Source of the DNA: a virus
Virus record (IMG/VR): IMGVR_UViG_3300029319_009270
Coordinates: 26,545 to 90,544 of that record
Length of the DNA stretch: 64,000 nt
Direction: 5' to 3' (one strand)
Shown here: positions 14,037 to 42,196 of the stretch, one piece after another
Layout: each line of letters opens with the position of its first letter
How positions within the stretch are numbered: position 1 is the first letter of the stretch
The notes under the pieces: model-generated
What the model saw: the letters and a program-made list of their open reading frames with translations, nothing else
Told to the model about the DNA's origin: nothing
The model's database searches: none
Program-made: the position numbers and the translations under genes

Positions 14037-14729
14037 TTAACCTCTAATAACAGCCAAAATTCTATCTGCTCTTTCAATTCTTTTTTCTATTACATTCCAA
14101 TTTAGTTCTTTCATCATAGCTGTCGTGTACAACTTTACATCTTTAAGGTAATCCCTATAATAAGCATGTTGCCAAACATCCATTACGATCACCGGATAAA
14201 ATCCAGCAGGAACTTGCTGAGAATGCAAGTCTATAACACAGTTCATGTATTTTTGTGTGTATGTATTTAAATATGTAACTGCCCAACCACATCTAGCAGC
14301 AGAACAGCATGCGATAAAATCTCTTTGCCAGTCATCAAAAGAACCAAAGTCCCTCTGCAACCTCATAAAAGAAAGAGAATCCATCGTTATTTCAGAATTA
14401 ACATCGCTTATGTTTGCAAAATATAATTCATGGAGGTAAGCAGCATTCATATTGTAAGTCTCATCAATTTTTAATTGACGATAATCAGAATGATTTGAAT
14501 TAGATTTTGATCGATCAACAGTGTCTAACTTTGCACTAATCTCATTAAAATCTTTAAGATACTGCTGATACAGTTTTTTGTGATTTTCTTTATTCTTGTT
14601 ACTAAGAAATTCTGTGTTTAACTTAAATTGTTTTTCTTGAGCAATTAGCGCTTCATCTATTCTATCTTCTTTCAATCCTAAGTTGTCTTTAATTAAAGAT
14701 TTCACTTCATTATTTAACAAGTAATCCAT
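14037..14729 (-). CDS. Fe/Mn superoxide dismutase family protein
   Basis: Metal ligands in NHKKLY, LHELYF and DVWQHAYY; FGSFDDW and GWA motifs. Confidence 0.88.
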   Translation of the reverse strand: MDYLLNNEVKSLIKDNLGLKEDRIDEALIAQEKQFKLNTEFLSNKNKENHKKLYQQYLKDFNEISAKLDTVDRSKSNSNHSDYRQLKIDETYNMNAAYLHELYFANISDVNSEITMDSLSFMRLQRDFGSFDDWQRDFIACCSAARCGWAVTYLNTYTQKYMNCVIDLHSQQVPAGFYPVIVMDVWQHAYYRDYLKDVKLYTTAMMKELNWNVIEKRIERADRILAVIRG

Positions 14730-15008: not shown

Positions 15009-15434
15009 TTACGAATCAATCGTTCTTACTATAATTCCAGAGCTTTCTAGTATATCTATTCCCTTACTGTTAGGATATCTTTCTAAATATATGACTTCTT
15101 TAATTCCTGCATTAATAATTGCTTTGGCGCAAACATCACAAGGAGATAATGTCAAGTACATTTTTTTGTCTTTTGACGTATTGTAGTCACACTTAATTAA
15201 TGCATTGATTTCAGCGTGTATAAAACCACTCATACCTACCTGATTTGAATCCCTTGTATTTGGACCGCCTTTTTGATCTCCATTATATCCAACAGCAAAA
15301 ACCTGAGTGTTGTCTTCTGACACAATAACACAGCCGACTTTGTGTTTTGGGTCGACTGATCTACAAGCTATCATTCTAGCAAATTGGGACCAAATATGGT
15401 CCCAACTAGGTCTTCCACTTCTGATTGCGTACAT
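15009..15434 (-). CDS. dCMP deaminase (ComEB-like)
   Basis: VGCVIV, GYNG, HAEINA and SPCDVC zinc motifs. Confidence 0.93.
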   Translation of the reverse strand: MYAIRSGRPSWDHIWSQFARMIACRSVDPKHKVGCVIVSEDNTQVFAVGYNGDQKGGPNTRDSNQVGMSGFIHAEINALIKCDYNTSKDKKMYLTLSPCDVCAKAIINAGIKEVIYLERYPNSKGIDILESSGIIVRTIDS

Positions 15435-15436
15435 TG

Positions 15437-16288
15437 TTATTCATCCTCTTCTTGAATGTCAGAAAATATTTCATCAACATGTTTATCCTTGCTAATTCTA
15501 AAACCCGCTGCTTTTCTATGACCCCCGCCTCCAAATTCTTTGGCAATCTCAGAAACATCAATTGTATCATGAAACGATCTTAAACTGACTAGGGTAGTTT
15601 TTGCATCGTGGTCGTAATACCAAATTGTTGCAAAATCACAATCAGGAGAAAGTTTAGCGCCTATTTCTGACATCCAATGTGAAGCATTAACAACATATGT
15701 TTTCATACCTTTGTACTCTTTTAAAGTTGCTTTTTCACATATCTTTTTAATAACTGTCTTTGAATACGCTAATATATAGCTACCTCTTTTAACAGCGTCA
15801 TCAAAGACAGAATCATCTTCAAATTTTTCAAACTCTTCAAATTCAAACGGAACCATGTCAAAAGCTGCACTAAATTCTTTTGAATAAGGTAATTCCCATT
15901 TCCACAGATCTCTGTCCATAATGTACTGAATAAACTTAGGTGGTTCCTTTCCTGGATGAAACCACTCCCAAGATAACATCGCACCACTTTTGGTCATGTC
16001 AAAATGTGTATTACTAATATCGTGTAATTCAACCATAGCAGATTTATGATGATCAATAACTAATAAATTATTAGAGTCTTCTATCATCTTTTTTGTTGTT
16101 GCGTTATTAAAAGAAAAATCTAATATTACAACATTCTTATTTTTAACATCTGGGGGTTGGGTACCGTGCTTGCACGCGTGATACTCTGCTCTATTACCAA
16201 GTAGCTTCCACGCAGAATATGCAGCACCAAAACCGTCTGTACAATGTGCATGATATATTACACAATCTACGCTGTTCGGATCTAACAT
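15437..16288 (-). CDS. DHH/DHHA1 phosphoesterase
   Basis: DGFGAA, ILDF, IDHH, SLRS and GGGGH.AAG. Confidence 0.92.
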   Translation of the reverse strand: MLDPNSVDCVIYHAHCTDGFGAAYSAWKLLGNRAEYHACKHGTQPPDVKNKNVVILDFSFNNATTKKMIEDSNNLLVIDHHKSAMVELHDISNTHFDMTKSGAMLSWEWFHPGKEPPKFIQYIMDRDLWKWELPYSKEFSAAFDMVPFEFEEFEKFEDDSVFDDAVKRGSYILAYSKTVIKKICEKATLKEYKGMKTYVVNASHWMSEIGAKLSPDCDFATIWYYDHDAKTTLVSLRSFHDTIDVSEIAKEFGGGGHRKAAGFRISKDKHVDEIFSDIQEEDE

Positions 16289-16302: not shown

Positions 16303-16878
16303 CTAAATGCGCATATAAGTATGGTGTTCCTGACATCTTGGCTCGTAAAGTTCTGACCCACCTACTTGAATTTTTTTATTCGCATTACTTAAACTATGTT
16401 GTTGTTTTTTGTGTGTATATCTTGCATCTTTCTGGCATATCGGACAAACAGCTTTACATTTTACAATTCTTGTACAAAAAGGCATTATTTTTTGTACTTC
16501 TTCAAAAGGCTCTCCTAAAAAATTTAAATCAATTGAAGCAATTACTACATCATAACCCATTTTAAAAAGATCGATACACTCTTGTGCACTACCTTCTATT
16601 AAAAATAACTCATCTATAATTACACAGTCATAAAAGTCTGCGCCTAGATCATGAGATTTCATAATCTCTATAATTTCTTTTCCTGTATTAACAAGATGAG
16701 CATCAAGCTTATTGAAATTGTGTGTAACTATTTCGCCCTTACCAGAATATCTGTCATCCATTTTGGATTTAAAAGCAATCAAATTCTGTTTCCGGTATTC
16801 CCTTTTATCAGCTTCCATTAATAACTTTGTTGTCTTCGAACTGAACATTGGCCCAGTATACAATATCATTTCTGCCAT
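16303..16878 (-). CDS. tdk: Thymidine kinase (type II)
   Basis: GPMFSSKTT, DDRY, IDE, zinc lasso C..C and GGSELYEPRC; TAATG coupling at 16878. Confidence 0.93.
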   Translation of the reverse strand: MAEMILYTGPMFSSKTTKLLMEADKREYRKQNLIAFKSKMDDRYSGKGEIVTHNFNKLDAHLVNTGKEIIEIMKSHDLGADFYDCVIIDELFLIEGSAQECIDLFKMGYDVVIASIDLNFLGEPFEEVQKIMPFCTRIVKCKAVCPICQKDARYTHKKQQHSLSNANKKIQVGGSELYEPRCQEHHTYMRI

Positions 16879-17858
16879 TACTTCAAACCCCACCACTTAA
16901 CTGTTTTTTCTAATCCTTCCCAAAATCTTACTTTAGGCGTGTAACCAAAAGCTTCTTTTGCTCGAGTTATGTCTGCACATGTATGCATAACATCACCTGG
17001 TCGCCATGGTGCAGTATGAACTTTTGATCCGAAGTTATCTATAAAATAAGTTAATATCTCTCCATTTGTTACAGAATCGCTACACGCAATATTAAAACAT
17101 TGACCACGCCATCTTTCTTTTACCTTTGAGGAAAGTATATTTGCATCAACAACATTATCAACATAACACATGTCTCTACTTTGAGTTCCATCACCATCCG
17201 ATCGACAGCTAAGACCGTTTTTAGTAGCATGACACCAAGCAGAAACTGCAGTCGAATAAGGGCTGTCTCCATACTGACCCGGCCCAAACACGTTAAAATA
17301 TCGAAGGCAAACAATATCAGAATCATCATAAAGTGAACCATAAACTTTGGCGATATCTTCACACGCAGATTTTTGCCAAGCATAAGGTGACTTAGGCTTT
17401 TTGATCGTTGATTCAGGCGTAGGCATAATATCTGCGCCACCATAAACTGACGATGATGAAGAAAAAATAATTCTTGTTTTTCCAATTCTTGCTGCATCAA
17501 ATAATTTAACTGTATTCATTAAGTTGACCTCAGTCGTCTCTGCTGGATTCTCAACTGAAAAACTTACTCGTGGTACCGCAGCAAGATGAAATATGCAGTC
17601 ATAATTTCCTAATGCAACTTTTTCTAATATTCCGCTGAAAGCGAAATCACAATGAAAAAACCTAATAAAATCTCTGCCTGTTTCATCTATGCTGTGCATA
17701 ATCTGTGCCATTGATTTTCTAATTTTATATTCTTCTAACGAATCAAAATTACCGCTAGATAAATCATCAACAATGTCAATCGTGTAATTTTCTTCATGTA
17801 GCTTCTTAACTAAATTAGAACCTATGAAACCGAAACCACCCGTTACTAAAACTTTCAA
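16878..17858 (-). CDS. NAD-dependent NDP-sugar epimerase/dehydratase (extended SDR, WbpP/GalE-like)
   Basis: TGGFGFIG, HLAA, SSSSVY, YAWQK, RYFNVFGP and GDGTQSRD. Confidence 0.93.
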   Translation of the reverse strand: MKVLVTGGFGFIGSNLVKKLHEENYTIDIVDDLSSGNFDSLEEYKIRKSMAQIMHSIDETGRDFIRFFHCDFAFSGILEKVALGNYDCIFHLAAVPRVSFSVENPAETTEVNLMNTVKLFDAARIGKTRIIFSSSSSVYGGADIMPTPESTIKKPKSPYAWQKSACEDIAKVYGSLYDDSDIVCLRYFNVFGPGQYGDSPYSTAVSAWCHATKNGLSCRSDGDGTQSRDMCYVDNVVDANILSSKVKERWRGQCFNIACSDSVTNGEILTYFIDNFGSKVHTAPWRPGDVMHTCADITRAKEAFGYTPKVRFWEGLEKTVKWWGLK

Positions 17859-17875: not shown

Positions 17876-18790
17876 CTAAATTATAATATGCGCAGAATTA
17901 AAGTTTATTCTTATTCTACATTTCAAATTATTTAATCTTAATTGATTGTATACTTTACTACAAAGATAATACAAGAATTGAATATCGTATTTTAAAGTAT
18001 CTTTTGTATTAGATGATCTAAAAACAAAATTACAGTCAAATATTCTATTTCTTACTGTGAACTGCCCAAAAGAAATACAAGTATCAGAGCTGTACACAAA
18101 TCGTCTAGAAGCAGTATTTTCTTTTCTATTATGTTCATTATTCCCATTCAACTCATTTTCTATTTTGTTCTGAACTGATTTTAATATGCTTTGATAATAA
18201 TCTTTTTCGGGCTCGTATTCCAAAACTTTTAAATTAATATCTTTAAAATCGCAGTCGCTATAATAAGTTAGATTGATATGAGAAGCTTCTAAACTATCAT
18301 TTGCTGCCGCGAACATATTTACATAACCAGCAACATCTTGAATGCTGATGGCTTCTATCGTCATCAACTCTTTAATAACCGGTTCAACGTAAGAAAGCGT
18401 ATTATCATCTCTAATAACCATCACGTTTGGATACAGTCTTAATTCCTCAGCTGCTTCTTCAAACAATCTATAAACTTTTTTAAGGGTTGTTATGGTTTGT
18501 ATATCATCCCCTCTTTTGTTATAACGTCGTTCAATCTCGTCCCACGATGGTAAAAGTATAATAATACGATTGTTCAAGTTTTTAATTTCTGCATTAAGTC
18601 TTTCAACTTCAATAAAAGTATCGCGATCGTAAAGCTTTGCATAAACTAACATTGACAAAGCAGATCGATCTTGGATATTCCAACGATACTTAGAAATTTT
18701 ATGCAGCTGATTATAAAAAGAAGTCTTGCCAGACAAATCAGGGCCTTCTAAAATTAACTGACTTGTTGGGAAACAATTTGTTTTATTCAT
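17876..18790 (-). CDS. dNMP kinase fused to a minimal thymidylate-synthase (ThyA)/dCMP-hydroxymethylase-fold domain
   Basis: N-term LEGPDLSGKT P-loop and DRS; C-term SRR...DTCISFGQF...FRSSN...LKYDI...NSAHI; start at 18790 after GGAGG. Confidence 0.8.
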   Translation of the reverse strand: MNKTNCFPTSQLILEGPDLSGKTSFYNQLHKISKYRWNIQDRSALSMLVYAKLYDRDTFIEVERLNAEIKNLNNRIIILLPSWDEIERRYNKRGDDIQTITTLKKVYRLFEEAAEELRLYPNVMVIRDDNTLSYVEPVIKELMTIEAISIQDVAGYVNMFAAANDSLEASHINLTYYSDCDFKDINLKVLEYEPEKDYYQSILKSVQNKIENELNGNNEHNRKENTASRRFVYSSDTCISFGQFTVRNRIFDCNFVFRSSNTKDTLKYDIQFLYYLCSKVYNQLRLNNLKCRIRINFNSAHIII

Positions 18791-18807
18791 GTTACCTCCT
18801 AACACGT

Positions 18808-18864: not shown

Positions 18865-19530
18865 CTAGCTCACGTATTTCAATATTAATTCAGGCACTGA
18901 ATAATTGAACAACTCAAAATCTTTTTGATACAGATTGTAAAAATATTTTGTAACATCTGGCGAATATTCCCAGTCAGGTTGTATATCTTTATTAATTCTG
19001 GATTTATTCATGTGAGGTAGTTTTTGATTGCTGATGACGTCTTTGTCATTTAAAAACTTTATAACATTTTCAATTTCTTCAAATTTAAAAACTTTTGTTT
19101 TATCATCAACAAAATAATGTTGAGGCACCCAGTGATTATCGTCGAAACCCATTCCTAATTTAGGAACAAGATCTGTAAAAACTGCGTGCATATAATGAAT
19201 AATCCCATGAGGCGTTATTGAGTTTCTAGTAATCGTGGTTGTCTCTAGCTTTTCGTAACCTTTAATTACATAAAATATTTCTGACAACATTCTTTCTATG
19301 GGATTTCTAACGATCGTAAATGTAAATTCAATGTCTAGATCTGAATTCATTTTATTATACACGTCTTTCGTATGATGAGGATGCGCCTTAAAATAGTTTG
19401 ACTCTTTGGTAAAAAACCTTTTCTCATCTTTTTTCCAACCTGCACTTTGTATTAGTTTTCTTATAGAAGTACCTCCAGTTTTAGGTATGTGCACAAACTG
19501 TATTGTTCTGTTGTCTTTATAGAATATCAT
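18865..19530 (-). CDS. Sulfotransferase (Sulfotransfer_2-like)
   Basis: FVHIPKTGGTSI (5'-PSB loop), VRNPIERMLS (3'-PB) and HWVPQ; ATGA overlap with dnaE. Confidence 0.88.
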   Translation of the reverse strand: MIFYKDNRTIQFVHIPKTGGTSIRKLIQSAGWKKDEKRFFTKESNYFKAHPHHTKDVYNKMNSDLDIEFTFTIVRNPIERMLSEIFYVIKGYEKLETTTITRNSITPHGIIHYMHAVFTDLVPKLGMGFDDNHWVPQHYFVDDKTKVFKFEEIENVIKFLNDKDVISNQKLPHMNKSRINKDIQPDWEYSPDVTKYFYNLYQKDFELFNYSVPELILKYVS

Positions 19531-23129: not shown

Positions 23130-24125
23130 TTAAATACTAGTCGGTGAGTTTGAAAATTTTATTTTTGTAATTGTTGGACACGACTCAGTTATTCTATCAG
23201 TAATATAAGTCGTCATTTCTGTCAAAGAATCAAATACTTTATGTTCATTATGATGCAATTTAAATAATTTAGCTGATTCGATGACATCTGTTTTTGATAA
23301 AACAATATGCGTTGTCCCAGTAAAATTAATTGCTTTTATCAGCTTGTTGAGATTGAGCCAGTTAACCTTTCTTCTTCTACCCGTTGTAACACCAAACTCA
23401 TGACCAAGATCTGCAATTTTCAGTAATTCAGGATCATTAAGTAAACTTTCAGGAAAGTCCGGATCAACTCCTGACCTAGTATCATAAACTTTCGCAGCTC
23501 CCCATATATTCCTTATCATCTGAATTGGAAATCCTAAGGAGCATGCTCCGTGTGGTAAGGTTGTACTAGAAGTAACATAAGGATAATTACCAAAATCTAC
23601 ATCCAGCCATATTCCTTGCGCACCTTCACAAAGAACTTTTCCGGAAAGATTCTCATCCCACATCATCCAGTAGGGTATAACGTCTTTAGCAAGAACCCCC
23701 TTGCGAGCCATTTTATCAGCGTAGCAAGGGGCTATTCCCTTTGATGTGGTTCCAAGTTTTTTTGCTAACTTTTCCGCATCTTCATCAATGTGAAGTCTGC
23801 TTACAATATGCGCTCTGGGTGAAACCTTAACTTTTGATATATCAAAACCGTTTTTCTCCAAATATCTAATTTCCGCCATAAGTGAATTCTCATGAACAAC
23901 GCAACCTGGCCCTATGACTGATGTTACACCATGAAAAACACCACTTGGTACTAAATGGGTTTTGTATTTTTTACCATCGACAAAAACAGTGTGTCCTGCA
24001 TTGTTACCACCAGCCCAACGACAAACAAAATCATATTCACCACTACCGGCTAATTCTGATGTAATTTTTCCTTTTGCCTCATCGCCCCAAGCTAATCCGC
24101 AAACAATATCTGCGTATTCAATCAT
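23130..24125 (-). CDS. purA: Adenylosuccinate synthetase, short form (PurA, not PurZ)
   Basis: WGDEAKG (catalytic Asp kept), GGNNAGHT, EGAQG, YPYVTSS, EFGVTTGRRR and SKTD GTP-specificity motif. Confidence 0.92.
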   Translation of the reverse strand: MIEYADIVCGLAWGDEAKGKITSELAGSGEYDFVCRWAGGNNAGHTVFVDGKKYKTHLVPSGVFHGVTSVIGPGCVVHENSLMAEIRYLEKNGFDISKVKVSPRAHIVSRLHIDEDAEKLAKKLGTTSKGIAPCYADKMARKGVLAKDVIPYWMMWDENLSGKVLCEGAQGIWLDVDFGNYPYVTSSTTLPHGACSLGFPIQMIRNIWGAAKVYDTRSGVDPDFPESLLNDPELLKIADLGHEFGVTTGRRRKVNWLNLNKLIKAINFTGTTHIVLSKTDVIESAKLFKLHHNEHKVFDSLTEMTTYITDRITESCPTITKIKFSNSPTSI

Positions 24126-28832: not shown

Positions 28833-29918
28833 CTAAACAAATACAGAGTTAAACTGTTGTGTGCATCTAACGAATGTAGCACATTTGCTCAACTGTTTTA
28901 AGGTGGGCGCTCCTACGTAAGTACAAGTAGATCTAACCCCACCTAAAATATCTTTGATTGTATTTTTGACTTTTCCTTTATAGGGTATTTCTACTGTCCG
29001 ACCTTCAGAAGATCGGTATTCTGCCACGCCGCCTGAATGTTTTTGCATTGCAGTATCAGAGCTCATACCGTAAAACTGTATGTAGTGTTTTTCTTCATAA
29101 ACTGGACCTAGCTTATCACCATAAATAGAAAGCTCTATCTCACCTGTTTTAAAACACTTAGTTATAATTTCACCACCCCCTTCGTCATGACCGGCCAACA
29201 TTCCGCCTAACATTACAAAGTCAGCACCGGCTGCAAATGCTTTGGCCACGTCTCCCGGGCAAGTGCATCCACCATCTGCGATGATATGACCGCCTAAACC
29301 GTGCGCTGCATCAGCACATTCAATAACAGCTGAAAGCTGTGGGTATCCAACGCCAGTTTGAATTCTTGTAGTGCATACAGAACCCGGGCCAATACCAACC
29401 TTAACAACATCTGCTCCTGCGAGAATAAGCTCTTGTGTCATGTCTGCAGTGACAACATTACCAGCAATGATGTTGCAATGAGGAAAATCACTTCTGACTA
29501 GTTTAACAAAATCAGTAAAGTGTTCTGAGTATCCATTCGCTATATCAATACAAATCCAACTTAGATTACACGTTGAAATTATTTCTTTTGCTTTCTTGTA
29601 CTCTTCTACGTTTGTGCCCACACTAATAGCAAGATGATCTGTGTCTATTTGTCCGAACTGACCATACCAGTCCTCAGGTGTATTTTGCTTTGTTATGCAG
29701 GTAAACATCTCACATAACGCTAGCTCGTGTGCTATATTAAACGTGCCTACCCCGTCCATGTTCGCAGCCATAATTGGGATCCCAGTCCAGAATTTGCCGC
29801 TGTTTCTAAACGTATACTTTCGACGCAAGTCGACTTCTTTCCTAGATCGGAGGATACTGCGTTTTGGACGAATTAGTACATCTTTATAATCTAATTTTAT
29901 TTCTTGTTCAATTCTCAC
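28833..29918 (-). CDS. guaC: GMP reductase (type 1)
   Basis: [37 protein letters not shown] catalytic Cys, ADGG, FYGMSS and YRSSEG. Confidence 0.95.
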
Positions 29919-29929
29919 AATTTTTCTCC

Positions 29930-30268
29930 TTAATTTTTTTCAACAATTGCTTTCAATGGAAAACCAGACTGTCTAGCATAATCAATGACTTGAGCAGATT
30001 TTGTATCAGCAATCTCTTTGCTGAAAGGGCCGCCTGCTATACCCTTCCCTTTTTCATGAACAGAGCTAGCTATATTCCACGCTGTATCAACATCTTTATA
30101 AAAAAAAGTAATTAACACTATAACAACAAATTGAAAATGTGTATAGTCATCATTTAACAAGACAACGTTGTATTTACTAGGTTTTACTACTTTATTCTTT
30201 TCTTTTTGTCTATCAAGTAGATCTACACCGCTATCACAATCTTTGCTTTCTTTCTTTTTTTGAGTCAT
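29930..30268 (-). CDS. clpS: ATP-dependent Clp protease adaptor ClpS
   Basis: [27 protein letters not shown] and FPL. Confidence 0.92.
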
Positions 30269-31888: not shown

Positions 31889-32866
31889 CTAATAATACTG
31901 TGTCAAATCTATATTTTTACCTTTTGCTTCTTCAAGATATCTTAAAGGATTGTAATTGTCTGTTTTTGTTATGCTTTCAAAAGACATTCTAATACCTGTT
32001 TGTAGATCAATCTTTGGTGACCACCCAGATACATTTCTAAACTTCCAAGATGATAGCATATGATTACCAAGGTAGTCTGTTTTAGAGTGCCATCTGATTA
32101 CATTCTCAAGGTCTAGATCAGTAACTTGTTGAATCAACTTTACAATCTCACCTGTCATCAAAGGAGTTTCAGCTGCAACATTCCAATCCTGGTACCAAAG
32201 ATTTTGATTTATTGCTGTTAAAACTGCATCGCAATAATCGTTGACATGCATGTAGTCTTTAATTTTTGAAGGATCCAGGAACATATCAATCTGTGTCTTT
32301 CCGTTAATAGCACCATAGATTGATTTTGCAATAAGAGAATTCATATCTCCAATTCCTCCATAAGCGAATAGAGGTCGAACAATCATCCATTTTTCAACTT
32401 GACTTTTAATAATGTCCTCTGCACAGAGTTTTTGACAGCCATATAAAGTGTGTGGGCCTCTATCTGATCTTTCTTCAATTTGCTTGCTTTGGTAGTTCTT
32501 TGTATCATATATCACTGTCGTACCCATGTAGCAGACAGGTATGTCTAGCTTTCTTGCAGCCCGGCAAATTGTATACGTACCTTCAACGTTGGTTAAGGTA
32601 GATTCTTTAGCATTAAGTGCTACAACGTCTGTACCGACAACTGCAGCATTATGTATTATAACATCAATTTTTTCACTTTTGAAAAAGTTTACCCAATGAT
32701 CAATTGAATTTCCATGAACACAAGGTTCTTTTTTCTCGGACCATTTTGTAAAATAATTATCATATTTTGACACGCCTTCATTGACAACTTCTATATCAAA
32801 TAACTTAGATCTGGCTATTAGATTTCGGCCGATGAAGCCTTTTTCTCCGGTGATGAATAATTTCAT
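31889..32866 (-). CDS. NAD-dependent NDP-sugar epimerase/dehydratase (extended SDR, divergent)
   Basis: ITGEKGFIG, HNAA, GTTVIY, YGCQK and KDYMHVND. Confidence 0.88.
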   Translation of the reverse strand: MKLFITGEKGFIGRNLIARSKLFDIEVVNEGVSKYDNYFTKWSEKKEPCVHGNSIDHWVNFFKSEKIDVIIHNAAVVGTDVVALNAKESTLTNVEGTYTICRAARKLDIPVCYMGTTVIYDTKNYQSKQIEERSDRGPHTLYGCQKLCAEDIIKSQVEKWMIVRPLFAYGGIGDMNSLIAKSIYGAINGKTQIDMFLDPSKIKDYMHVNDYCDAVLTAINQNLWYQDWNVAAETPLMTGEIVKLIQQVTDLDLENVIRWHSKTDYLGNHMLSSWKFRNVSGWSPKIDLQTGIRMSFESITKTDNYNPLRYLEEAKGKNIDLTQYY

Positions 32867-32886: not shown

Positions 32887-32915
32887 ATTATACAAAGCAT
32901 TATTGAATATTACAT
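32887..32915 (-). promoter_or_regulatory. Putative class-1 promoter ATGTAA-N17-TATAAT
   Basis: Motif and spacing. Confidence 0.65.
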
Positions 32916-33356
32916 ATGTGTATGATAACTTTTGTGACGCTCATACATAATATCAGTTTTTACATGATAGTGATCAATACCTAATGCATGCCCTGTTTCA
33001 TGAACAACAACTTCATAATCAGTCACACCTTCGTGTGAAAGCTTTATGACTGCATTATCTAAATACCGATAAGTCCAATTGAGTTCAGTGTGTCCGTAAG
33101 TACGTACTGTATCAATAGTATCATCAGCAGGTGCAAATTTAATAACATACTTTTCTGGTTTGCCATCACAATGTGTTCTTGTAGAAATTTCACCAAATTC
33201 ATGACCTCTTGATTTCCAATATTCGATAGCATCTTGAACGTACTCAATTTTAATATTAGAATTTTCACAATAAACAACATCGGGTGCTACACGCCAGGTT
33301 GCAAAGTATTCATAGTCTGCAGCAAATGTTGAAGCAATCAAAGCTAGTAGAAACAT
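32910..33356 (-). CDS. Secreted matrixin-like (M10 metzincin) metalloprotease
   Basis: Signal peptide; HETGHALGIDH zinc motif; DIMY Met-turn. Confidence 0.88.
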   Translation of the reverse strand: MFLLALIASTFAADYEYFATWRVAPDVVYCENSNIKIEYVQDAIEYWKSRGHEFGEISTRTHCDGKPEKYVIKFAPADDTIDTVRTYGHTELNWTYRYLDNAVIKLSHEGVTDYEVVVHETGHALGIDHYHVKTDIMYERHKSYHTHM

Positions 33357-34485: not shown

Positions 34486-34935
34486 TTATTCTATTTCACC
34501 TTCATATCTTAATTCAAGCAAACGTTCAGATGCAGTACAATCTTGCAAGTAAGCATCTAATTGTTCCAACGAAGTGCATACTGCAATTCCCGATGCTGCT
34601 AACATGAGATTAAATTGTGCACCGGGTGGTAAACCATCGCAAAAATAAACAATTGGCTTTTCTAAACAATTCATATAACCTGCTTCAAAAATCGACCCCA
34701 TATCTTTGTTTCTTGTATTGCATAGCATCCAGTCACATTCATGAAGATGCCTAATATTTCCTGAAAATATTTGATCTTGTATAGACTCATTAGCATCATT
34801 ATCACAAAGATTTTCATCCTTCGGTGAAAAATAAGAAATGCCGTGTTTTTCAAAAACTGATTTAATATTTTCTACTTCTTCCAACCACTCAGGTGAAAAC
34901 CACCCGCTTGCTAAATAAACTTTTCCTAAACTCAT
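34486..34935 (-). CDS. Nucleoside 2-deoxyribosyltransferase / nucleotide N-glycosidase (NDT, MilB, DNPH1 superfamily)
   Basis: VYLASGWFS, FSPKD, DMGSIFEAG (catalytic Glu) and FNLML. Confidence 0.88.
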   Translation of the reverse strand: MSLGKVYLASGWFSPEWLEEVENIKSVFEKHGISYFSPKDENLCDNDANESIQDQIFSGNIRHLHECDWMLCNTRNKDMGSIFEAGYMNCLEKPIVYFCDGLPPGAQFNLMLAASGIAVCTSLEQLDAYLQDCTASERLLELRYEGEIE

Positions 34936-35924
34936 TATTCTCTCCCCATAAATTGATTGTATTGATTTGTTAATTGATTAATCTCTTCTAATGTTTCTTC
35001 CCAAAGCTGTGTAAAAATTGTTGGTGTACCCGGGACATGATTTTTACCATTAATATCCTCACGACGAGACTGATAAATTGTATCATTGGGATGATATTCA
35101 AACTTATCGTTCTTTGGTTCTGGCCAATATAGGTTTGTACCTCGTGATGTTTCGCCACCTTTACCATCAGGTACGCGAAATGTTTTAATATAGTGCATAT
35201 CTGGTTTATTAAAATTAATACGCGCGGTTGCTTCAGGCAGAACTTTGATTACTTCTCTTGCCATGTACGCGGCAAGTAAATTATCAGCTGCCGGTTGAAT
35301 TTGCATGTCTTGACGTTGAGCGATAAAACCTAACAGATCTTTTAAGTTAAGACGCATTAGATAAAATGAAGTCATGCACTTTGGTAAAATCATTCTTGCA
35401 TCCATCATTGATACAATCTTGGAATCTGTCATGTCAGCATATAATTCCTTAGATTCGCGAACTAACTTTTTCCAGCGCCTATCAAACTCGGGTGTGTTTT
35501 GAACAGCTTCAGGAATTACTGCGGGATCATCCCTTAAGTCACGATCACCAGTACACTGTGCGGCAAAACTACCAGCACGATGTCGTATGATGTGTGTAAC
35601 CTCTTGAAATGATAAGCCACTTAACTTAAATGTAAACCCTAAACATTCCATAGGTGTTGGAAGTGCACGAAAACAAAGAACATCCTCGAGATTTGCAGAC
35701 AGTTCTTTTAAACTAGCAGTAGCTGGATTTGTCTCATCGTGATGATCAGCCCATGTTGCTTTTACATATTGCCAAGCAACATTAAGCGCTTGAGATCTAG
35801 TTGGATGATCAACTAGTTCAACTTTCAAATGTGCAAGATTGTTATAAAATGCTGTGTTGGGTTCTTGACCAAACTTAAGTTCCATTGGCAGATCAACAGG
35901 TTTCAAATCATTATTCTGTGGCAT
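34935..35924 (-). CDS. Divergent ThyX-fold (flavin-dependent thymidylate synthase-like) protein
   Basis: FTF...RHRAGSFAAQCTGDR, DARMILP and NLKDLLGFIAQR. Confidence 0.82.
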   Translation of the reverse strand: MPQNNDLKPVDLPMELKFGQEPNTAFYNNLAHLKVELVDHPTRSQALNVAWQYVKATWADHHDETNPATASLKELSANLEDVLCFRALPTPMECLGFTFKLSGLSFQEVTHIIRHRAGSFAAQCTGDRDLRDDPAVIPEAVQNTPEFDRRWKKLVRESKELYADMTDSKIVSMMDARMILPKCMTSFYLMRLNLKDLLGFIAQRQDMQIQPAADNLLAAYMAREVIKVLPEATARINFNKPDMHYIKTFRVPDGKGGETSRGTNLYWPEPKNDKFEYHPNDTIYQSRREDINGKNHVPGTPTIFTQLWEETLEEINQLTNQYNQFMGRE

Positions 35925-35988: not shown

Positions 35989-36909
35989 TTATTTTATTAT
36001 TAACTTATTAGGATTCGTATAGACAAATGTATTATCACGACCATCAACTTCTAAATTATAATTTTTTCTAGGATAATAACAAACTATTCCGTGCTTTGCA
36101 TAATCCACAATATGTTTGGGAGCATCGTCAATTGCAGCAACTATTTTATCTTTATCATAGTACTTTGACCTAGCACACCATCGAAATTTTTCTGTGCTAA
36201 AGTCAACTGCATCAAACGGAATACTGTTATTTTTTAGCCAATAAAACGTATCATAAAAACATTTTAAATTTTCTTTAGGTCTAGCTGTCAATAGCTGGAT
36301 CCAGTAGCCTTGCTTTTTTAAATTATTTAGCATCTCAATCGATCCATCAACGACATCTAAATTCCTAAACCCACCCTTATTAACAAATTCGTAAAATACA
36401 GCTTCAGGATTTAAATCTAATTTATTCAATGCAGTTATAAAATAGTATTCTTTACTATAGACATCAATTTCTAAATTGTAATTTACACCTAGCCAATCTG
36501 CAAAACCTTGTCTAAATTCAGTCAAAACATCATCCATATCAACAATAACGACAGGTTGAGACCCATCCCAACTATCTTGTGTCTTGTGAAGAAAATTTAA
36601 ATATGAATCTTTATCATAAAAAGCTTCAATAAAATTTTCACTAGATATTTGATTAATATTAAGGATAGCTAAGATATATCGAAATATATCCACAGATTCA
36701 TAGAGCATTTTTGTTTTGTCTACAGAATCTGTTTGTGCATGATGATCTTTAAAATCAACAGATTGCATTAGCTCACTAACTTCTGAATGTAAGCAAAGTG
36801 ATAAAGTTTTTGTAATATCTACAATTTCTCTATCACTTAAGTTTTTTTCGCTTAGATTATATAAGCTAGAATTGAATTTTGCTTGTAAATTGAACAGGTT
36901 TTTCAGCAT
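35989..36909 (-). CDS. All-alpha NTP pyrophosphatase (MazG/dCTPase-dUTPase-like) fused to a HAD 5'(3')-deoxyribonucleotidase
   Basis: N-term EVSELM...F.DH...ESVDIFRY; C-term VDMDDVL, LTAR, T..WL and IDDAP; start at 36909 after GAGG. Confidence 0.82.
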   Translation of the reverse strand: MLKNLFNLQAKFNSSLYNLSEKNLSDREIVDITKTLSLCLHSEVSELMQSVDFKDHHAQTDSVDKTKMLYESVDIFRYILAILNINQISSENFIEAFYDKDSYLNFLHKTQDSWDGSQPVVIVDMDDVLTEFRQGFADWLGVNYNLEIDVYSKEYYFITALNKLDLNPEAVFYEFVNKGGFRNLDVVDGSIEMLNNLKKQGYWIQLLTARPKENLKCFYDTFYWLKNNSIPFDAVDFSTEKFRWCARSKYYDKDKIVAAIDDAPKHIVDYAKHGIVCYYPRKNYNLEVDGRDNTFVYTNPNKLIIK

Positions 36910-37135
36910 TTTTGACCTCACTAATTTTGCCTCCTGCAATTGCAAAGGCGTCTGTTAAACAATCAGGCTCTATTTTTTCAAAAAATATTGAGCTATGATC
37001 TGATAAGCGAATAATTCCTGATAAAAAATCTTTATTTATATTTGTAATAATACACTGCAATTCATCCTTATTACAAAAACTAAAAGAATTAATTATTTTA
37101 TCATTACTAGCAGTCAAAATTAGTTTGTGCATCAA
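36866..37135 (-). CDS. Hypothetical protein
   Basis: Coupled ORF inside the cluster. Confidence 0.5.
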   Translation of the reverse strand: MMHKLILTASNDKIINSFSFCNKDELQCIITNINKDFLSGIIRLSDHSSIFFEKIEPDCLTDAFAIAGGKISEVKNAEKPVQFTSKIQF

Positions 37136-37629
37136 TAACCATTTTTAAGTCTATCATTAATTATTATGTCTTTATTCAAATATGCCTTAAAAAATTCATC
37201 TGAGTCTATGTTTAGATGTATCATTAACGAAAAGAAATAGTTAAAAGCATCAACCATCTCTTCTAAAAATTCTTCCTTATTAAATGTTCCACCAACATCA
37301 GTTTGACGATGAGACTTCCAATTTTTCAAGTGTTGGAGAGCTTCAAACATCTCCTCGACGCCGTGCAATGCTAAGTCTCTTAGATATTTTTGACCATCTT
37401 TTGATGCAGGATTAATTTCTTTTGGTTGCGCTTTCGGAACTGTTTTACTTAAATTAGTCATAAAAGCTTTTCTAAGTAAGAAAATCTGTTCTAAACGATC
37501 ACAATTAAATTCATTATTTGTCTTCTCTTCTTCCTTTAACAGACTCAAGCATTGATTCAATTTCTCTTTCAATTCTTTCTTTGCTTTCTTTCGTAAGTTT
37601 AAGGTTTCCATCGCCATTCTCCAGTTCAA
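37132..37629 (-). CDS. Dimeric all-alpha dUTPase/dCTPase-like NTP pyrophosphatase (start uncertain)
   Basis: EEMFEALQHLKNWKSHR...EEMVDAFNYF...YLNK..N.DR...GY. Confidence 0.82.
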   Translation of the reverse strand: MNWRMAMETLNLRKKAKKELKEKLNQCLSLLKEEEKTNNEFNCDRLEQIFLLRKAFMTNLSKTVPKAQPKEINPASKDGQKYLRDLALHGVEEMFEALQHLKNWKSHRQTDVGGTFNKEEFLEEMVDAFNYFFSLMIHLNIDSDEFFKAYLNKDIIINDRLKNGY

Positions 37630-37732: not shown

Positions 37733-38545
37733 CTATTTTTGAATACTTGGTACCCAATGTGTTGTCCTCTTGTCTTTAGTCTTTTCTCTAACAACAAGAT
37801 TACCATTTGGATCTGTTTTTTGATTATACACAGCAAAACGCCTACTGTACAAACCTTTTTCACCATTTGACTGCCTATATGTTGCTATTGTAGCTCCACC
37901 CATTTGATACGAAAGTCTAGTAATCCACCGACACGCTTCAGAAAGAGACTCAAATTCTTTGTCAGATACATCCTTACTTAACCTGTGGGGAGATATCTGG
38001 CACGCATAAAGTATTTCTGCTTTTAAATAGTTACCAACCCCAGATATCACAGATTGATTCATTAGGTTTTCAGCTACAGTTTTATTAGGCCTCTTTAAAA
38101 ACCTTTCTCTAATTGTATTCTGATCAACTTCTGAATTTAAAACATCAGGTCCGAGCGACTTAAGTTTCTTCTCAAGTTCATGGAAGCATCGCACATATTT
38201 AAGCGTTCCAAAGTTTCTCACGTCATTAAAGTGAACGCTCTGACCTTTATGGTTAGTTAGCGTTACGCGCGTGTGCTTGTTCTTTTTGCGCTGCCACATC
38301 CCGCTCATACCTAATGTTGACCACAAAGACGAACCGGTATTAAATTTAAAATAGATAAACTTACCTTTGCAGCAAACTTCTTCTACAATCAACGGGAATA
38401 ACTCATTATCTAATAAGTCATAACCTTTAAACGGACCGTGTTTGACATAACGCCCTGAATTAATCTGGACATCTAATATTCTGGTTCCTTGCAGAATGCT
38501 ATTTAAATAGTCAACATTTTTTCTTACTTCTGGACCTTCAGGCAT
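37733..38545 (-). CDS. Fpg/Nei family DNA glycosylase/AP lyase with a zincless finger
   Basis: MPEGPEV, KGKF, LGMSG, DVRNFG, LGPD and H2TH SGVGNYLKAE; no Cys4 finger. Confidence 0.93.
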   Translation of the reverse strand: MPEGPEVRKNVDYLNSILQGTRILDVQINSGRYVKHGPFKGYDLLDNELFPLIVEEVCCKGKFIYFKFNTGSSLWSTLGMSGMWQRKKNKHTRVTLTNHKGQSVHFNDVRNFGTLKYVRCFHELEKKLKSLGPDVLNSEVDQNTIRERFLKRPNKTVAENLMNQSVISGVGNYLKAEILYACQISPHRLSKDVSDKEFESLSEACRWITRLSYQMGGATIATYRQSNGEKGLYSRRFAVYNQKTDPNGNLVVREKTKDKRTTHWVPSIQK

Positions 38546-39110
38546 TTACACCCCTCCTAAACCAATCTGGCATTGTTGCACGCGGTTCCCATTTGGCAAA
38601 CCGGACTTTGTCTTGAATATAATAATTTCTATAGCTTTTTACCGGGTCTCCCGGGACTTTGTAATCTTCTTTCATGCATACAGCAAAAGGGGATAGACCT
38701 TTGTTGTTCATGAAGCGTGGCTTATTCTTACCGAGCCAGTCTAATACTGCTTCAGACTTATGTGTCCTGTGGTATCTCTGTGTGTATTCTTTGCACAGAG
38801 CGACTCCTAATTCCCAGTGCCATTCGTAATTTGCTAGTGACTCGTTTGTCCACAAGGTGCAAGGGTGTCTTATATGAGAAAGTTTCCACGGTGGCTGCTC
38901 GAGTGGGTGCGTGTTATCAAAAAGCCACTGCTGAATATCTCTGACTCTTTTAAAATCCGTTATTTCGCCATCATAATAATTCTTAAGCAAGTGCAACCAA
39001 TGCGCTGTACAGAGCATTTGACCTGATTCTAAAATCATTTTAACGACGTGTTTATTACAGTGATATTTTGCTGCTATTACAGGATTCTTATCAAGAACAA
39101 ATATATTCAT
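38538..39110 (-). CDS. Pyrimidine-dimer DNA glycosylase (DenV-like family)
   Basis: MNIFVLD...A..HC.KHVVKM.LE..QML, HPCTLW, EYT.RY...H and SYRNYY. Confidence 0.8.
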   Translation of the reverse strand: MNIFVLDKNPVIAAKYHCNKHVVKMILESGQMLCTAHWLHLLKNYYDGEITDFKRVRDIQQWLFDNTHPLEQPPWKLSHIRHPCTLWTNESLANYEWHWELGVALCKEYTQRYHRTHKSEAVLDWLGKNKPRFMNNKGLSPFAVCMKEDYKVPGDPVKSYRNYYIQDKVRFAKWEPRATMPDWFRRGVNA

Positions 39111-39525
39111 TACTTCTCAACCAATTGACATAGTTTACAAGAGCGCCATCTTTTGGCTGTACAGTTTTCCACTCACCTTTGCAAAATATTCGATAAGCAT
39201 CAGAACCGTACTTTCCGATACCATATAAATTGGTAGCATCACCTTGCCAGTCTTTGCTTAGATAATCGCAAGACATTTTTTTAAGAGCTTTAGCACGCTT
39301 CTTCGACAGACCTAGAGGCTGTATAAGCTCTACCAGATCATCATAATCAGCGTTTGCAAGGTCTTCAGGTGTTGGCCATCGCTTTAAAACTTCCCAAAAA
39401 TAAGGCTCGGCAGTTAAGCGTTTTGTTAAGTTACAAAAAATACAACAAACAAAAATCTTCCAAGGATCTTGCCAGAGTTTCTCTTGCAGTAGTGTATAGG
39501 GTGATTTAGGTGCTTTCCAATTCAT
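39091..39525 (-). CDS. MBD4-like HhH-GPD mismatch DNA glycosylase
   Basis: W..PKSPY.LLQE.L..DPWK, LYGIGKYGSDAYRIFC and W..VQPKD (catalytic Asp), paralleling the eukaryotic MBD4 catalytic domain. Confidence 0.9.
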   Translation of the reverse strand: MNWKAPKSPYTLLQEKLWQDPWKIFVCCIFCNLTKRLTAEPYFWEVLKRWPTPEDLANADYDDLVELIQPLGLSKKRAKALKKMSCDYLSKDWQGDATNLYGIGKYGSDAYRIFCKGEWKTVQPKDGALVNYVNWLRSNEYICS

Positions 39526-41396: not shown

Positions 41397-41827
41397 TTTC
41401 TAATTCTTTTAAAAACAGAAGCGACAGATGGAGATCCATTTTCATCTTCAAGGTCGAATCTACCCATTTCTGTTATATTATCATCTTGATAGAATATCAT
41501 TTCATTAGTATCATTATCAATTTCCCATTGTCCTACTGTAAAATGGCGAGTTAATCTAGTATCAACTTCTACTTCATCAGAAGCGAAAACAACTGTTGAA
41601 GTACTTCCTGTCACTTCCCAAACTATTGACCCGCTAAAAGATTGTGACAGTATTAATTGTGCTCCATAAATTCCTGTTGATCCTAGTTCGTAAACTCCCG
41701 TATTTGTTCTAGAAATGCTACCTGTGCCTAATGTGTCGAACGTCTGGTAGAAAACATGATCACGGCGACCAGCTAGGGATGCACCGAAATTAACTGTTTT
41801 TACTAATTTTATTTTTGCATCTGCCAT
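41393..41827 (-). CDS. Hypothetical structural protein
   Basis: TGS/SGS-rich beta protein like the neighbouring tail proteins. Confidence 0.7.
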   Translation of the reverse strand: MADAKIKLVKTVNFGASLAGRRDHVFYQTFDTLGTGSISRTNTGVYELGSTGIYGAQLILSQSFSGSIVWEVTGSTSTVVFASDEVEVDTRLTRHFTVGQWEIDNDTNEMIFYQDDNITEMGRFDLEDENGSPSVASVFKRIRK

Positions 41828-42196
41828 CTATTGCTCGTTATTATTTCTAGAATCTATAATTTTTTCTGGTCTAGTTCCAATGGGTCTTTGTTTTTCAGGT
41901 TTGATTCTTTTAACAGGTTCGCTATATTGTTTTGCAATTGTGTCAATTAAATTATTTTTTTCTTGTACTATCTTTGAGCTCATCTCGTAACTAAATATTA
42001 CATTGTCAAGAAATCTTATACACTTTACGTAAGAGTCGACTAAAGATGCGTAGCCATTTTCATCAATAGCAGCATTTTTTAAGGCGTTTTCGAAAAACAA
42101 AATAAGCTGTTTATAATTGTTTAAATGAACTTCATCAAAACTATTTTTAGCAAGCTGTGTATCAGTTTTAAAAGACTCAAGATTTTTTATATCCAT
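41828..42196 (-). CDS. Hypothetical protein
   Basis: Start reassigned to ATG 42196 (AGAGG RBS) because the longer start lies inside the terminator. Confidence 0.7.
   Translation of the reverse strand: MDIKNLESFKTDTQLAKNSFDEVHLNNYKQLILFFENALKNAAIDENGYASLVDSYVKCIRFLDNVIFSYEMSSKIVQEKNNLIDTIAKQYSEPVKRIKPEKQRPIGTRPEKIIDSRNNNEQ

Follow-up and report, generated by a model that had tools for sequence, protein, structure and literature searches.

Thymidylate synthesis has two unrelated textbook solutions, ThyA and ThyX. To our knowledge, the pyrimidine replacements found in phage DNA (5-hydroxymethylcytosine, 5-hydroxymethyluracil, 5-methylcytosine and 5-hydroxycytosine) all come from ThyA homologs. 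The T4 cassette of gp56 dCTPase, gp42 dCMP hydroxymethylase and gp1 kinase runs from pyrophosphatase to C5 enzyme to kinase, and the flavin-dependent 5-hydroxy-dCMP synthase and dNMP kinase of RB69, DLP3 and HY126 follow the same cassette logic (PMC13326640). On the ThyX side, the closest described proteins are ThyX itself (EC 2.1.1.148; PF02511; T. maritima TM0449, M. tuberculosis ThyX) and PolB, the polyoxin UMP/dUMP C5-methylase (4p5a/4p5b), a ThyX paralog that stands beside a housekeeping thymidylate synthase (PMC5954106). Here, we analyze a 64-kb stretch of DNA of a large marine phage, called the window, which is part of a 90.5-kb IMG/VR record (IMGVR_UViG_3300029319_009270, here G000) estimated to be 37% complete. 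It carries a gene for a 329-residue protein of the ThyX fold, which we call ThyX-like.

We read ThyX-like as a phage-specific, neofunctionalized ThyX-fold flavoprotein in a cassette that makes a 5-substituted deoxypyrimidine, and put the probability of this at roughly 0.55. It is quite likely that the protein is not a plain thymidylate synthase, and it probably works with a truncated ThyA-fold domain (mini-ThyA) and a P-loop kinase. That the product is of the cytosine type falls a little short of an even chance, and we hold it tentatively. No published account of this family or cassette, and no description of a ThyX-fold protein paired with a mini-ThyA, was found in the literature searched.

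The ThyX-like gene and its family

The gene is as follows:

34935..35924, minus strand: ThyX-like flavoprotein paralog, 329 residues (Pfam, PDB, AlphaFold2 (AF2) model, family conservation, and the ratio of nonsynonymous to synonymous substitution, dN/dS)

The frame starts with ATG, with AAGGAGG 5' of the start. Its TAA stop (34937-34935) overlaps the ATG (34935-33) of a gene resembling nucleoside 2-deoxyribosyltransferase (NDT). An original prediction, made from the sequence alone, was that the two genes are coupled through TAATG, and the stop/start overlap is indeed at 34935.

The fold is that of Thy1/ThyX by Pfam, AF2, Foldseek and VIA. Pfam Thy1 (PF02511) matches residues 37-231 at 67.8 bits, and the PHROGs label of the protein is thymidylate synthase. 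The AF2 model, from an alignment of 73 family members, has a pLDDT of 95.9 and a pTM of 0.92, and Foldseek returns only ThyX-family structures for it, at probability 1.0 with PolB as the top match. The H53A and H53D structures of ThyX are among the structural matches. VIA-align gives a Z of 16-17 to M. tuberculosis ThyX, T. maritima ThyX and PolB (16.2 for PolB, at about 20% identity), with about 200-213 residues aligned at a root-mean-square deviation of 2.4-3.1; unrelated chains give a Z of 4.5. PolB is still a methylase in a Streptomyces antibiotic cluster, whereas the ThyX-like family is viral and has other motifs and other partners. Its context is a phage nucleotide/replication module and not a nucleoside-antibiotic cluster.

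Residue equivalences were drawn from phmmer against PDB and from hhalign of the family profile against canonical ThyX (probability 99.05%). In T. maritima numbering, they are:

H51: R86 in ThyX-like, changed
H53: Leu88, changed
H59: Cys94, changed
S88: Cys124, changed
R90: Gly126, changed
Y91: Asp127, changed
E58: E93, kept
R78/H79/R80: R114/H115/R116, kept
S83: S119, kept
R147: R177 (DARMILP), kept
R174: R204 (IAQR), kept

ThyX-like thus has the fold, RHR, Ser83, Glu58, Arg147 and Arg174 in common with ThyX. It differs in having QIQPxxDN where ThyX has AQxEI, in the replacement of His53, Ser88, Arg90 and Tyr91, in a C-terminal extension of about 95 residues, and in its linkage to mini-ThyA and a kinase. 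Its motifs are LPTPME, RHR-x7-C-T-G-D-R, DAR and AQR, with neither the folate-stacking His nor SxRY. The ThyX signature RHRxxSxxxxSxRY is present as far as RHR and Ser83 and replaced at Ser88, Arg90 and Tyr91; residues 114-128 read RHRAGSFAAQCTGDR.

Much of this had been anticipated. The Ser in the RHR signature had been said to be replaced by Cys at 35553-35555; the codon there is TGT (the plus strand reads 'aca'), and both phmmer, which matches the protein to the T. maritima S88C mutant 3g4c, and hhalign place Cys124 on position 88. The segment that is usually GHxSxxEH does read ALPTPMEC (residues 87-94), with Leu88 in the place of His53, which is reportedly the folate-stacking residue of ThyX. 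The nucleotide-binding arginines Arg147 and Arg174 are retained as stated, being R177 and R204. There is also the long C-terminal extension that had been described: the Pfam domain stops at residue 231 of 329, the extension is conserved, and residues 242-300 or so lack a ThyX counterpart. The last helix may be the counterpart of the ThyX C-terminal helix.

Arg174 of ThyX polarizes the uracil O4. Ser88 and Tyr91 are strictly conserved and critical in ThyX, where Tyr91 and Arg90 act on the flavin carbinolamine hydroxyl (PMC11940539), and the Tyr is a lid over the dUMP C5 and the flavin N5 (PMC6514825). Judged by alignment, the loss of Tyr91 would be the mechanistically weightiest of the replacements, and it is one that the original prediction did not mention. 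ThyX-like would still bind a pyrimidine mononucleotide, with the catalytic lid (Ser88/Arg90/Tyr91) and the folate-stacking His53 gone.

Among 73 diverse members of the family, R114 is conserved in 100%, R177, R204 and Y162 in 99% each, Leu88 and Glu93 in 89% each, and Asp127 in 78% (plus Glu). Conserved across the family in this way, the motif set is evidently not due to chance. Cys124 is found in 74% of the 73 and is otherwise Ser (7), Gly (5) or Thr (4). It appears to be typical and not obligatory, and since it is not universally conserved, an essential role as nucleophile is unlikely. Pairs of ThyX-like orthologs have a dN/dS of 0.04-0.09, that is, strong purifying selection.

These data bear on a rival explanation, that ThyX-like is a divergent, genuine thymidylate synthase in a cassette that enlarges the supply of dTTP to phage genomes rich in AT. 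As this would need, both the ThyX fold and the arginines that bind nucleotide and FAD are retained. The S88C and S88A variants of T. maritima ThyX retain activity, and both have been crystallized (3g4c, 3g4a). However, His53, Arg90 and Tyr91 are replaced family-wide, Tyr91 being critical (PMC11940539), and ThyX-like scores 43 bits to TIGR02170, the NCBIfam thyX equivalog, below its cut-off of 87.9. We regard this explanation as unlikely, though a serious one for reasons given with the gene neighborhood.

It also has to accommodate a second thymidylate synthase in the same phages. The record that contains the window encodes, outside the window, a canonical ThyX that scores 160.7 bits to Pfam Thy1 as against 68.9 for ThyX-like, and has the motifs HRHTSTLEH and RHRTWSYNEISRRY. 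The related records G001, G002 and G008 likewise have a full canonical ThyX in addition to the ThyX-like gene; the copies in these four records have full motifs and score about 160-168 bits. G026 (284 kb, 100% complete) has the ThyX-like gene and a second, weaker ThyX-type match, which we read as its canonical copy, and G006 (98% complete) has the ThyX-like gene with a ThyA homolog. Five phage genomes therefore keep a canonical ThyX and one a ThyA homolog, which goes against ThyX-like being the thymidylate synthase of these phages. Moreover, ThyX-like is the more conserved of the pair: between G000 and G001/G002, it is 84-89% identical, compared to 69-73% for canonical ThyX. Since both ThyX-fold genes are retained and ThyX-like is the more constrained, their functions are suggested to be non-overlapping. 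The original prediction was that the enzyme may do something other than methylation; its chemistry does probably differ from thymidylate synthesis, given that H53, R90 and Y91 are gone, that the TIGR02170 score is below threshold, that a ThyX or ThyA coexists and that purifying selection is strong.

The ThyA homolog of G006, which is a GR1-like phage, is divergent (L084, G006:C1:76045-76806; 211 bits); it keeps the catalytic Cys and has Asn at the N177 position. Among the marine records G000-G004, ThyA is found in 0/5 and dCMP deaminase in 5/5. The latter gene is in the window:

15009..15434, minus strand: dCMP deaminase, PF00383 78.7 bits (record positions 41628-41951)

Together with canonical ThyX, it is predicted to make up the ordinary dTMP route of this phage.

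The family is essentially viral. A scan of 1.84 billion cluster representatives at 50% identity yielded 392 relatives with E <= 1e-3, of which 116 have E <= 1e-10. A 90%-identity collection held 999 at E <= 0.001; the 120 of these that were listed share 81-95% identity and originate in marine metagenomes. Matches in the ESM Atlas are to the family itself only. An exact-motif scan of 185,579 prokaryotic species genomes (one per species) gave 7 matches, 1 of them genuine, and the contig of that one, although binned with an archaeal metagenome-assembled genome, is phage-like. Carriers are contigs of up to about 285 kb, and part of the locus is present in the sequencing runs of 18 studies. In one member (P0142, 551 residues), the ThyX-like domain, which bears the motif QCSADR, is fused to an N-terminal region that weakly matches Glycos_transf_2 (E 1.6e-4, below the cut-off).

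Linkage to a truncated ThyA domain and a kinase

The partner gene in the window is:

17876..18805, minus strand: P-loop (YorR/TMPK-like) kinase fused to a truncated ThyA-fold domain (AF2, Foldseek/VIA, profile match to T4 dCMP hydroxymethylase, co-occurrence)

The protein has no sequence match in Pfam or PDB, PF00303 included. Its AF2 model, from 12 homologs, has a pLDDT of 89.8 and two domains. The N-terminal half resembles YorR, thymidylate kinases and deoxynucleoside kinases at Z 12-14. Residues from about 154 to 309 give a VIA Z of 11.2 to the flavin-dependent dCMP hydroxylase of HY126 (9iqu, 147 residues aligned), and also of 11.2 to the CMP hydroxymethylase MilA. In Foldseek, the nearest structures are flavin-dependent dCMP hydroxylases (9iqu at E 9e-6, also 9iqc), with thymidylate synthases and T4 dCMP hydroxymethylase ranking just under them. 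The mini-ThyA domain is at residues 170-309 or so, with the motifs SRR, Cys243, RS, Asp274 and SAH. The profile of the kinase and mini-ThyA family matches T4 dCMP hydroxymethylase in sequence at E 0.002, and this alignment puts Cys243 on C148, RS on RS and Asp274 on D179. Cys243 and Asp274 are invariant in the 12 sequences, and 8/12 have an acidic residue (Asp or Glu) at the third position ahead of the Cys. The same two features, as N177D and L143D/E, have served elsewhere as criteria for predicting that dCMP is the substrate and that the product is not methylated (PMC13326640).

Mini-ThyA thus has the ThyA fold and the catalytic Cys, and its residue at the N177/D179 position is Asp. It is not a complete enzyme: it has only about 140 residues, stops directly after the SAH motif, and lacks both folate-binding ends of ThyA. 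By its motifs, it retains the residues for dNMP binding as well as the Cys and the Asp of the cytosine type. ThyA homologs of the T4/RB69 type share the Cys and the cytosine-type Asp (D179) with it, but mini-ThyA is cut to about 140 residues and paired with a ThyX-fold flavoprotein. The cytosine-type Asp also qualifies the original prediction of a flavin enzyme acting on a uracil-type nucleotide. The ThyX fold stands and presumably binds flavin; uracil is one candidate for the base.

The linkage was followed in both directions. A match to the kinase and mini-ThyA profile is present in 11/11 ThyX-like records, with the two parts fused in eight marine records. In the clade of Geobacillus phage GR1, the kinase and mini-ThyA are split, and a 151-residue gene is the mini-ThyA (hhalign 91.8%, E 7.5e-7); in 7/7 loci, it lies against the ThyX-like gene, or overlaps it, on the 3' side of that gene. 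This separate protein belongs to phrog_35203. A natural separate pair of ThyX-like and mini-ThyA is at L059:6226-7272 and L059:5771-6226, respectively. In a more distant clade of phages with a PolA-type polymerase (26-30% identity), one locus has a Rossmann domain fused to dUTPase_2, then ThyX-like, the kinase and mini-ThyA, and another has ThyX-like, mini-ThyA and the kinase; the genes overlap in both. Conversely, of 26 records picked by their mini-ThyA gene, 23 also contain ThyX-like at full length (354-398 bits), and the other three are fragments estimated to be 15-50% complete. The near-universal linkage of ThyX-like is therefore to mini-ThyA and a P-loop kinase, and is more telling than that to NDT; the original prediction did not include it. 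The three arrangements, namely fusion of mini-ThyA to the kinase, overlap with ThyX-like in Bacillota phages and overlap with ThyX-like in PolA phages, are independent lines of evidence for it. A constant cytosine-type partner of this sort is not explained by the dTTP supply rival.

The structural neighbors of mini-ThyA bring in another explanation. ThyX enzymes have NADPH oxidase activity, and ThyX-like could be a dedicated NAD(P)H-dependent flavin reductase or donor for a two-component dCMP 5-hydroxylase formed by mini-ThyA. Phage flavin-dependent dCMP hydroxylases, of the 9iqu/9iqc type to which mini-ThyA is structurally nearest, need reduced flavin (PMC13326640). The lack of the folate-stacking His and the lid residues would also be in keeping with this, as would the overlap of the ThyX-like and mini-ThyA genes in two clades. 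However, the 99% conservation of the R147 and R174 equivalents would be needless in a mere reductase, RB69-type hydroxylases work without a dedicated partner (PMC13326640), and a nitroreductase-family gene already adjoins ThyX-like in GR1-like phages. We consider this explanation very improbable.

Gene neighborhood and the proposed pathway

The nucleotide genes near ThyX-like, and the thymidine kinase further off, are:

34486..34935, minus strand: NDT-like, PF05014 59.7 bits (PDB 6evs E 1e-6, 1s2d)
35989..36945, minus strand: dUTPase_2 (all-alpha NTP pyrophosphatase) fused to an NT5C-type HAD 5'-deoxynucleotidase (PF08761 and PF06941)
37132..37629, minus strand: second MazG/dUTPase_2-like NTP pyrophosphatase (phrog_12184, phrog_173; weak PF08761; syntenic)
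31889..32866, minus strand: extended short-chain dehydrogenase/reductase (SDR), NDP-sugar 4,6-dehydratase/epimerase-like (Pfam/NCBIfam; PDB 6bwl, 2hun)
16303..16896, minus strand: TK1-type thymidine kinase, PF00265 124.7 bits

This arrangement is sustained over 38 marine viral loci (56-91% identity), which have the order MazG-like, dUTPase_2 with NT5C, ThyX-like, NDT and often the SDR gene. NDT is 3' of ThyX-like in 37 of them, and the exception is at a contig end. A degenerate-pattern scan (FSAQCTGD) found 29 further loci at 33-47% identity. In 23 of these, NDT lies no more than a few kb from ThyX-like. A YfbR-like HD phosphohydrolase lies between NDT and ThyX-like instead of the NT5C domain, and MazG-like or SDR genes are followed by a DnaE-type polymerase. 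A 5'-deoxynucleotidase is thus always near ThyX-like, be it NT5C or YfbR-like HD. The extended-SDR gene often adjoins ThyX-like and overlaps it in another clade. TK1-type thymidine kinase is present in 9/11 ThyX-like records.

Cultured Geobacillus phage GR1 (OK896991, host G. stearothermophilus ATCC 10149) has a ThyX-like protein that is 47% identical and an NDT that is 35% identical, in a string of NDT, thioredoxin, HD, alpha-glucosyltransferase-like (phrog_2888, E 7e-51), P-loop kinase, RNase H, nitroreductase, ThyX-like and the 151-residue gene. No NDT was seen in the flanks (4.7-13.8 kb) of the three longer loci of the four-locus PolA-phage clade. The association with NDT and NTP pyrophosphatases that had been predicted stands, with NDT in 37/38 close and 23/29 more distant loci, but the coupling to NDT is clade-specific. 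Open reading frames of 510 and 321 residues near ThyX-like are not conserved in relatives.

In the PolA-phage clade, the gene just upstream of ThyX-like encodes about 410-430 residues with an N-terminal GxGxxG dinucleotide-binding motif. The N-terminal part of these proteins matches no Pfam family, and at least the L085 protein also has a C-terminal dUTPase_2 domain. These genes are:

L087:9549-10832: upstream GxGxxG-motif gene
L085:8218-9447: upstream GxGxxG-motif gene
L091:2856-4079: upstream GxGxxG-motif gene

An all-alpha NTP pyrophosphatase, ThyX-like, mini-ThyA and a kinase make up the invariant core. Its logic is shared with T4 gp56/gp42/gp1 and RB69 5-hydroxy-dCMP synthesis, except that the modifying step would here be divided between two proteins, and a non-canonical 5-substituted deoxypyrimidine pathway is therefore our preferred reading. 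In such a pathway, the all-alpha NTP pyrophosphatase would first convert dNTP to dNMP. ThyX-like and mini-ThyA would then place at C5 a group that is not the usual methyl of thymine, preferably with ThyX-like supplying flavin-borne one-carbon or oxygen chemistry and mini-ThyA activating the base. Finally, the P-loop kinase, fused to mini-ThyA in this phage, would phosphorylate the product for incorporation into phage DNA. The likeliest product would be a 5-substituted deoxycytidylate (hydroxymethyl, hydroxy or methyl).

A more specific form of this proposal is that ThyX-like and mini-ThyA are one two-protein C5-modifying enzyme whose non-canonical cytosine replaces C in the phage DNA, which we find doubtful as a whole. 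A flavin-borne one-carbon or oxygen unit would be handed to dCMP that is covalently activated by the mini-ThyA Cys. Two unrelated thymidylate-synthase lineages would have merged into one machine, and the carriers of the replaced C would be abundant marine jumbo phages and GR1.

If the preferred reading is true, this is the first ThyX-derived branch devoted to DNA base modification and the first system in which ThyX-fold and ThyA-fold proteins are obligately linked. The ThyX-like family is abundant in seawater metagenomes, and a modified base would therefore affect the sequencing, restriction and quantification of marine viral DNA. The enzyme could also be a tool for modified dNTP synthesis. 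GR1 is a cultured carrier, which makes the question directly testable.

A number of observations weigh against the preferred reading. The R174 equivalent is conserved at 99%, and the TK1-type and TMPK-like kinases co-occur; both fit a uracil substrate. The succession of dUTPase_2, ThyX fold and TMPK-like kinase is exactly the ordinary dTTP route. The carrier phages are AT-rich (35% GC in the window and 32% in the GR1 locus). GR1 and G009, both complete genomes, have ThyX-like and no other thymidylate synthase. Cys124 is missing in about a quarter of the family. A conserved DNA glycosyltransferase (phrog_2888, PF00535) is not found in the marine records, and an MBD4-like gene, described below, is a weak marker of modified cytosine since it is in only 4/11 records. 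Finally, the co-occurrence with mini-ThyA is partly due to shared ancestry of the marine phages; because those records are related to one another, the counts are not independent events.

Because of R174, the kinase types, the AT-richness and the GR1 and G009 genomes, a divergent, genuine thymidylate synthase stays a serious rival. In it, NDT, the 5'-deoxynucleotidase, thymidine kinase and dCMP deaminase would feed a path from the dUTPase-type pyrophosphatase through ThyX-like to the kinase, and the neighboring enzymes do match the canonical dTTP route. It is also favored by a set of window genes, PurA-like adenylosuccinate synthetase, GMP reductase and dCMP deaminase, which with ThyX looks like a kit for G-to-A and C-to-T pool conversion. 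The PurA-like protein (331 residues, 23130-24125, minus strand) reaches 262 bits with PurA models as against 113 bits with the PurZ model, and its gene is absent from most relatives. GMP reductase (28833-29918, minus strand) scores 531 bits.

The same uracil-side evidence would also fit a different division of labor, in which ThyX-like alone is a flavin-dependent dUMP 5-hydroxymethylase or 5-hydroxylase and mini-ThyA modifies cytosine in a separate reaction. With Asp127 standing where ThyX has the Tyr91 lid, water or oxygen would gain access to the intermediate, and NDT, the nucleotidase and thymidine kinase would form a nucleoside-level salvage or base-swap loop for the modified uracil. R174 is kept, the TK1-type kinase is frequent, and the P-loop kinases are TMPK-like. 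The NDT-like protein has the catalytic Glu in IFEAGY, the Asp six positions ahead of it and the Asn of NLM, and in its conserved nucleoside-type 5'-OH-binding residues, it resembles true nucleoside NDTs. The constant 5'-deoxynucleotidase, the alpha-glucosyltransferase-like gene of the GR1-like module and the SDR sugar enzymes that adjoin ThyX-like in marine clades point the same way. The pairing of ThyX-like with NDT also parallels MilA/MilB-type pairs, in which a C5-hydroxymethylase adjoins an NDT-family N-glycosidase. However, the canonical dTMP route (dCMP deaminase and ThyX) and thymidine kinase are kept, which is a poor fit with thymine replacement. Also, the glycosyltransferase is limited to one clade, and NDT is not seen in the distant-clade flanks, whereas mini-ThyA is always linked. 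We judge this division of labor to be improbable, and the shared 5-substituted deoxypyrimidine pathway remains the reading we prefer.

Other genes of the window

NDT, YfbR-like HD and MazG-like enzymes have been tied to dZ (PMC12884076; bioRxiv 10.1101/2025.10.22.683976), and a link to phages with Z (2-aminoadenine) genomes was considered and rejected. PF00709 is absent from G001-G005, G006, G009 and GR1, and the PurA-like gene of the window scores as PurA, not PurZ. Phage NDT-family enzymes, among them DmtZ of Z-genome phages, edit nucleotide pools, and MilB is named in the same account (PMC12884076). Compared to MilB and DmtZ, the NDT of the window is like the true nucleoside transferases (6evs, 1s2d) and not like dNMP hydrolases, and, unlike the setting of DmtZ in Z genomes, the ThyX-like module does not depend on PurZ. 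NDT co-occurs with YfbR-like HD and not with PurZ on 'dZ' contigs that resist restriction (bioRxiv 10.1101/2025.10.22.683976); some of those contigs might carry the module of NDT, HD and ThyX-like instead.

The ThyX-like gene string is headed by this gene:

39091..39525, minus strand: MBD4-type mismatch DNA glycosylase, 144 residues (PDB 4ew4 E 1.2e-39)

The protein is about 50% identical to the mammalian MBD4 glycosylase domain and keeps the catalytic Asp. It is the first of three overlapping glycosylase-type genes, being followed by phrog_624 (38538-39110) and Fpg/Nei (37733-38545).

The remaining observations are minor. A sulfotransferase gene (18865-19530, minus strand) lies directly after the DnaE-type polymerase gene. 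Among the nucleotide genes are a GDP-mannose 4,6-dehydratase-like SDR (16878-17858, minus strand) and a DHH/DHHA1 phosphoesterase (15437-16288, minus strand). The window also encodes, all on the minus strand, a GroEL-like chaperonin (1352-2941), a protein whose C-terminal domain is that of an Fe/Mn superoxide dismutase (14037-14729), a small open reading frame resembling ClpS (29930-30268) and a matrixin/astacin-like metallopeptidase (32910-33356).

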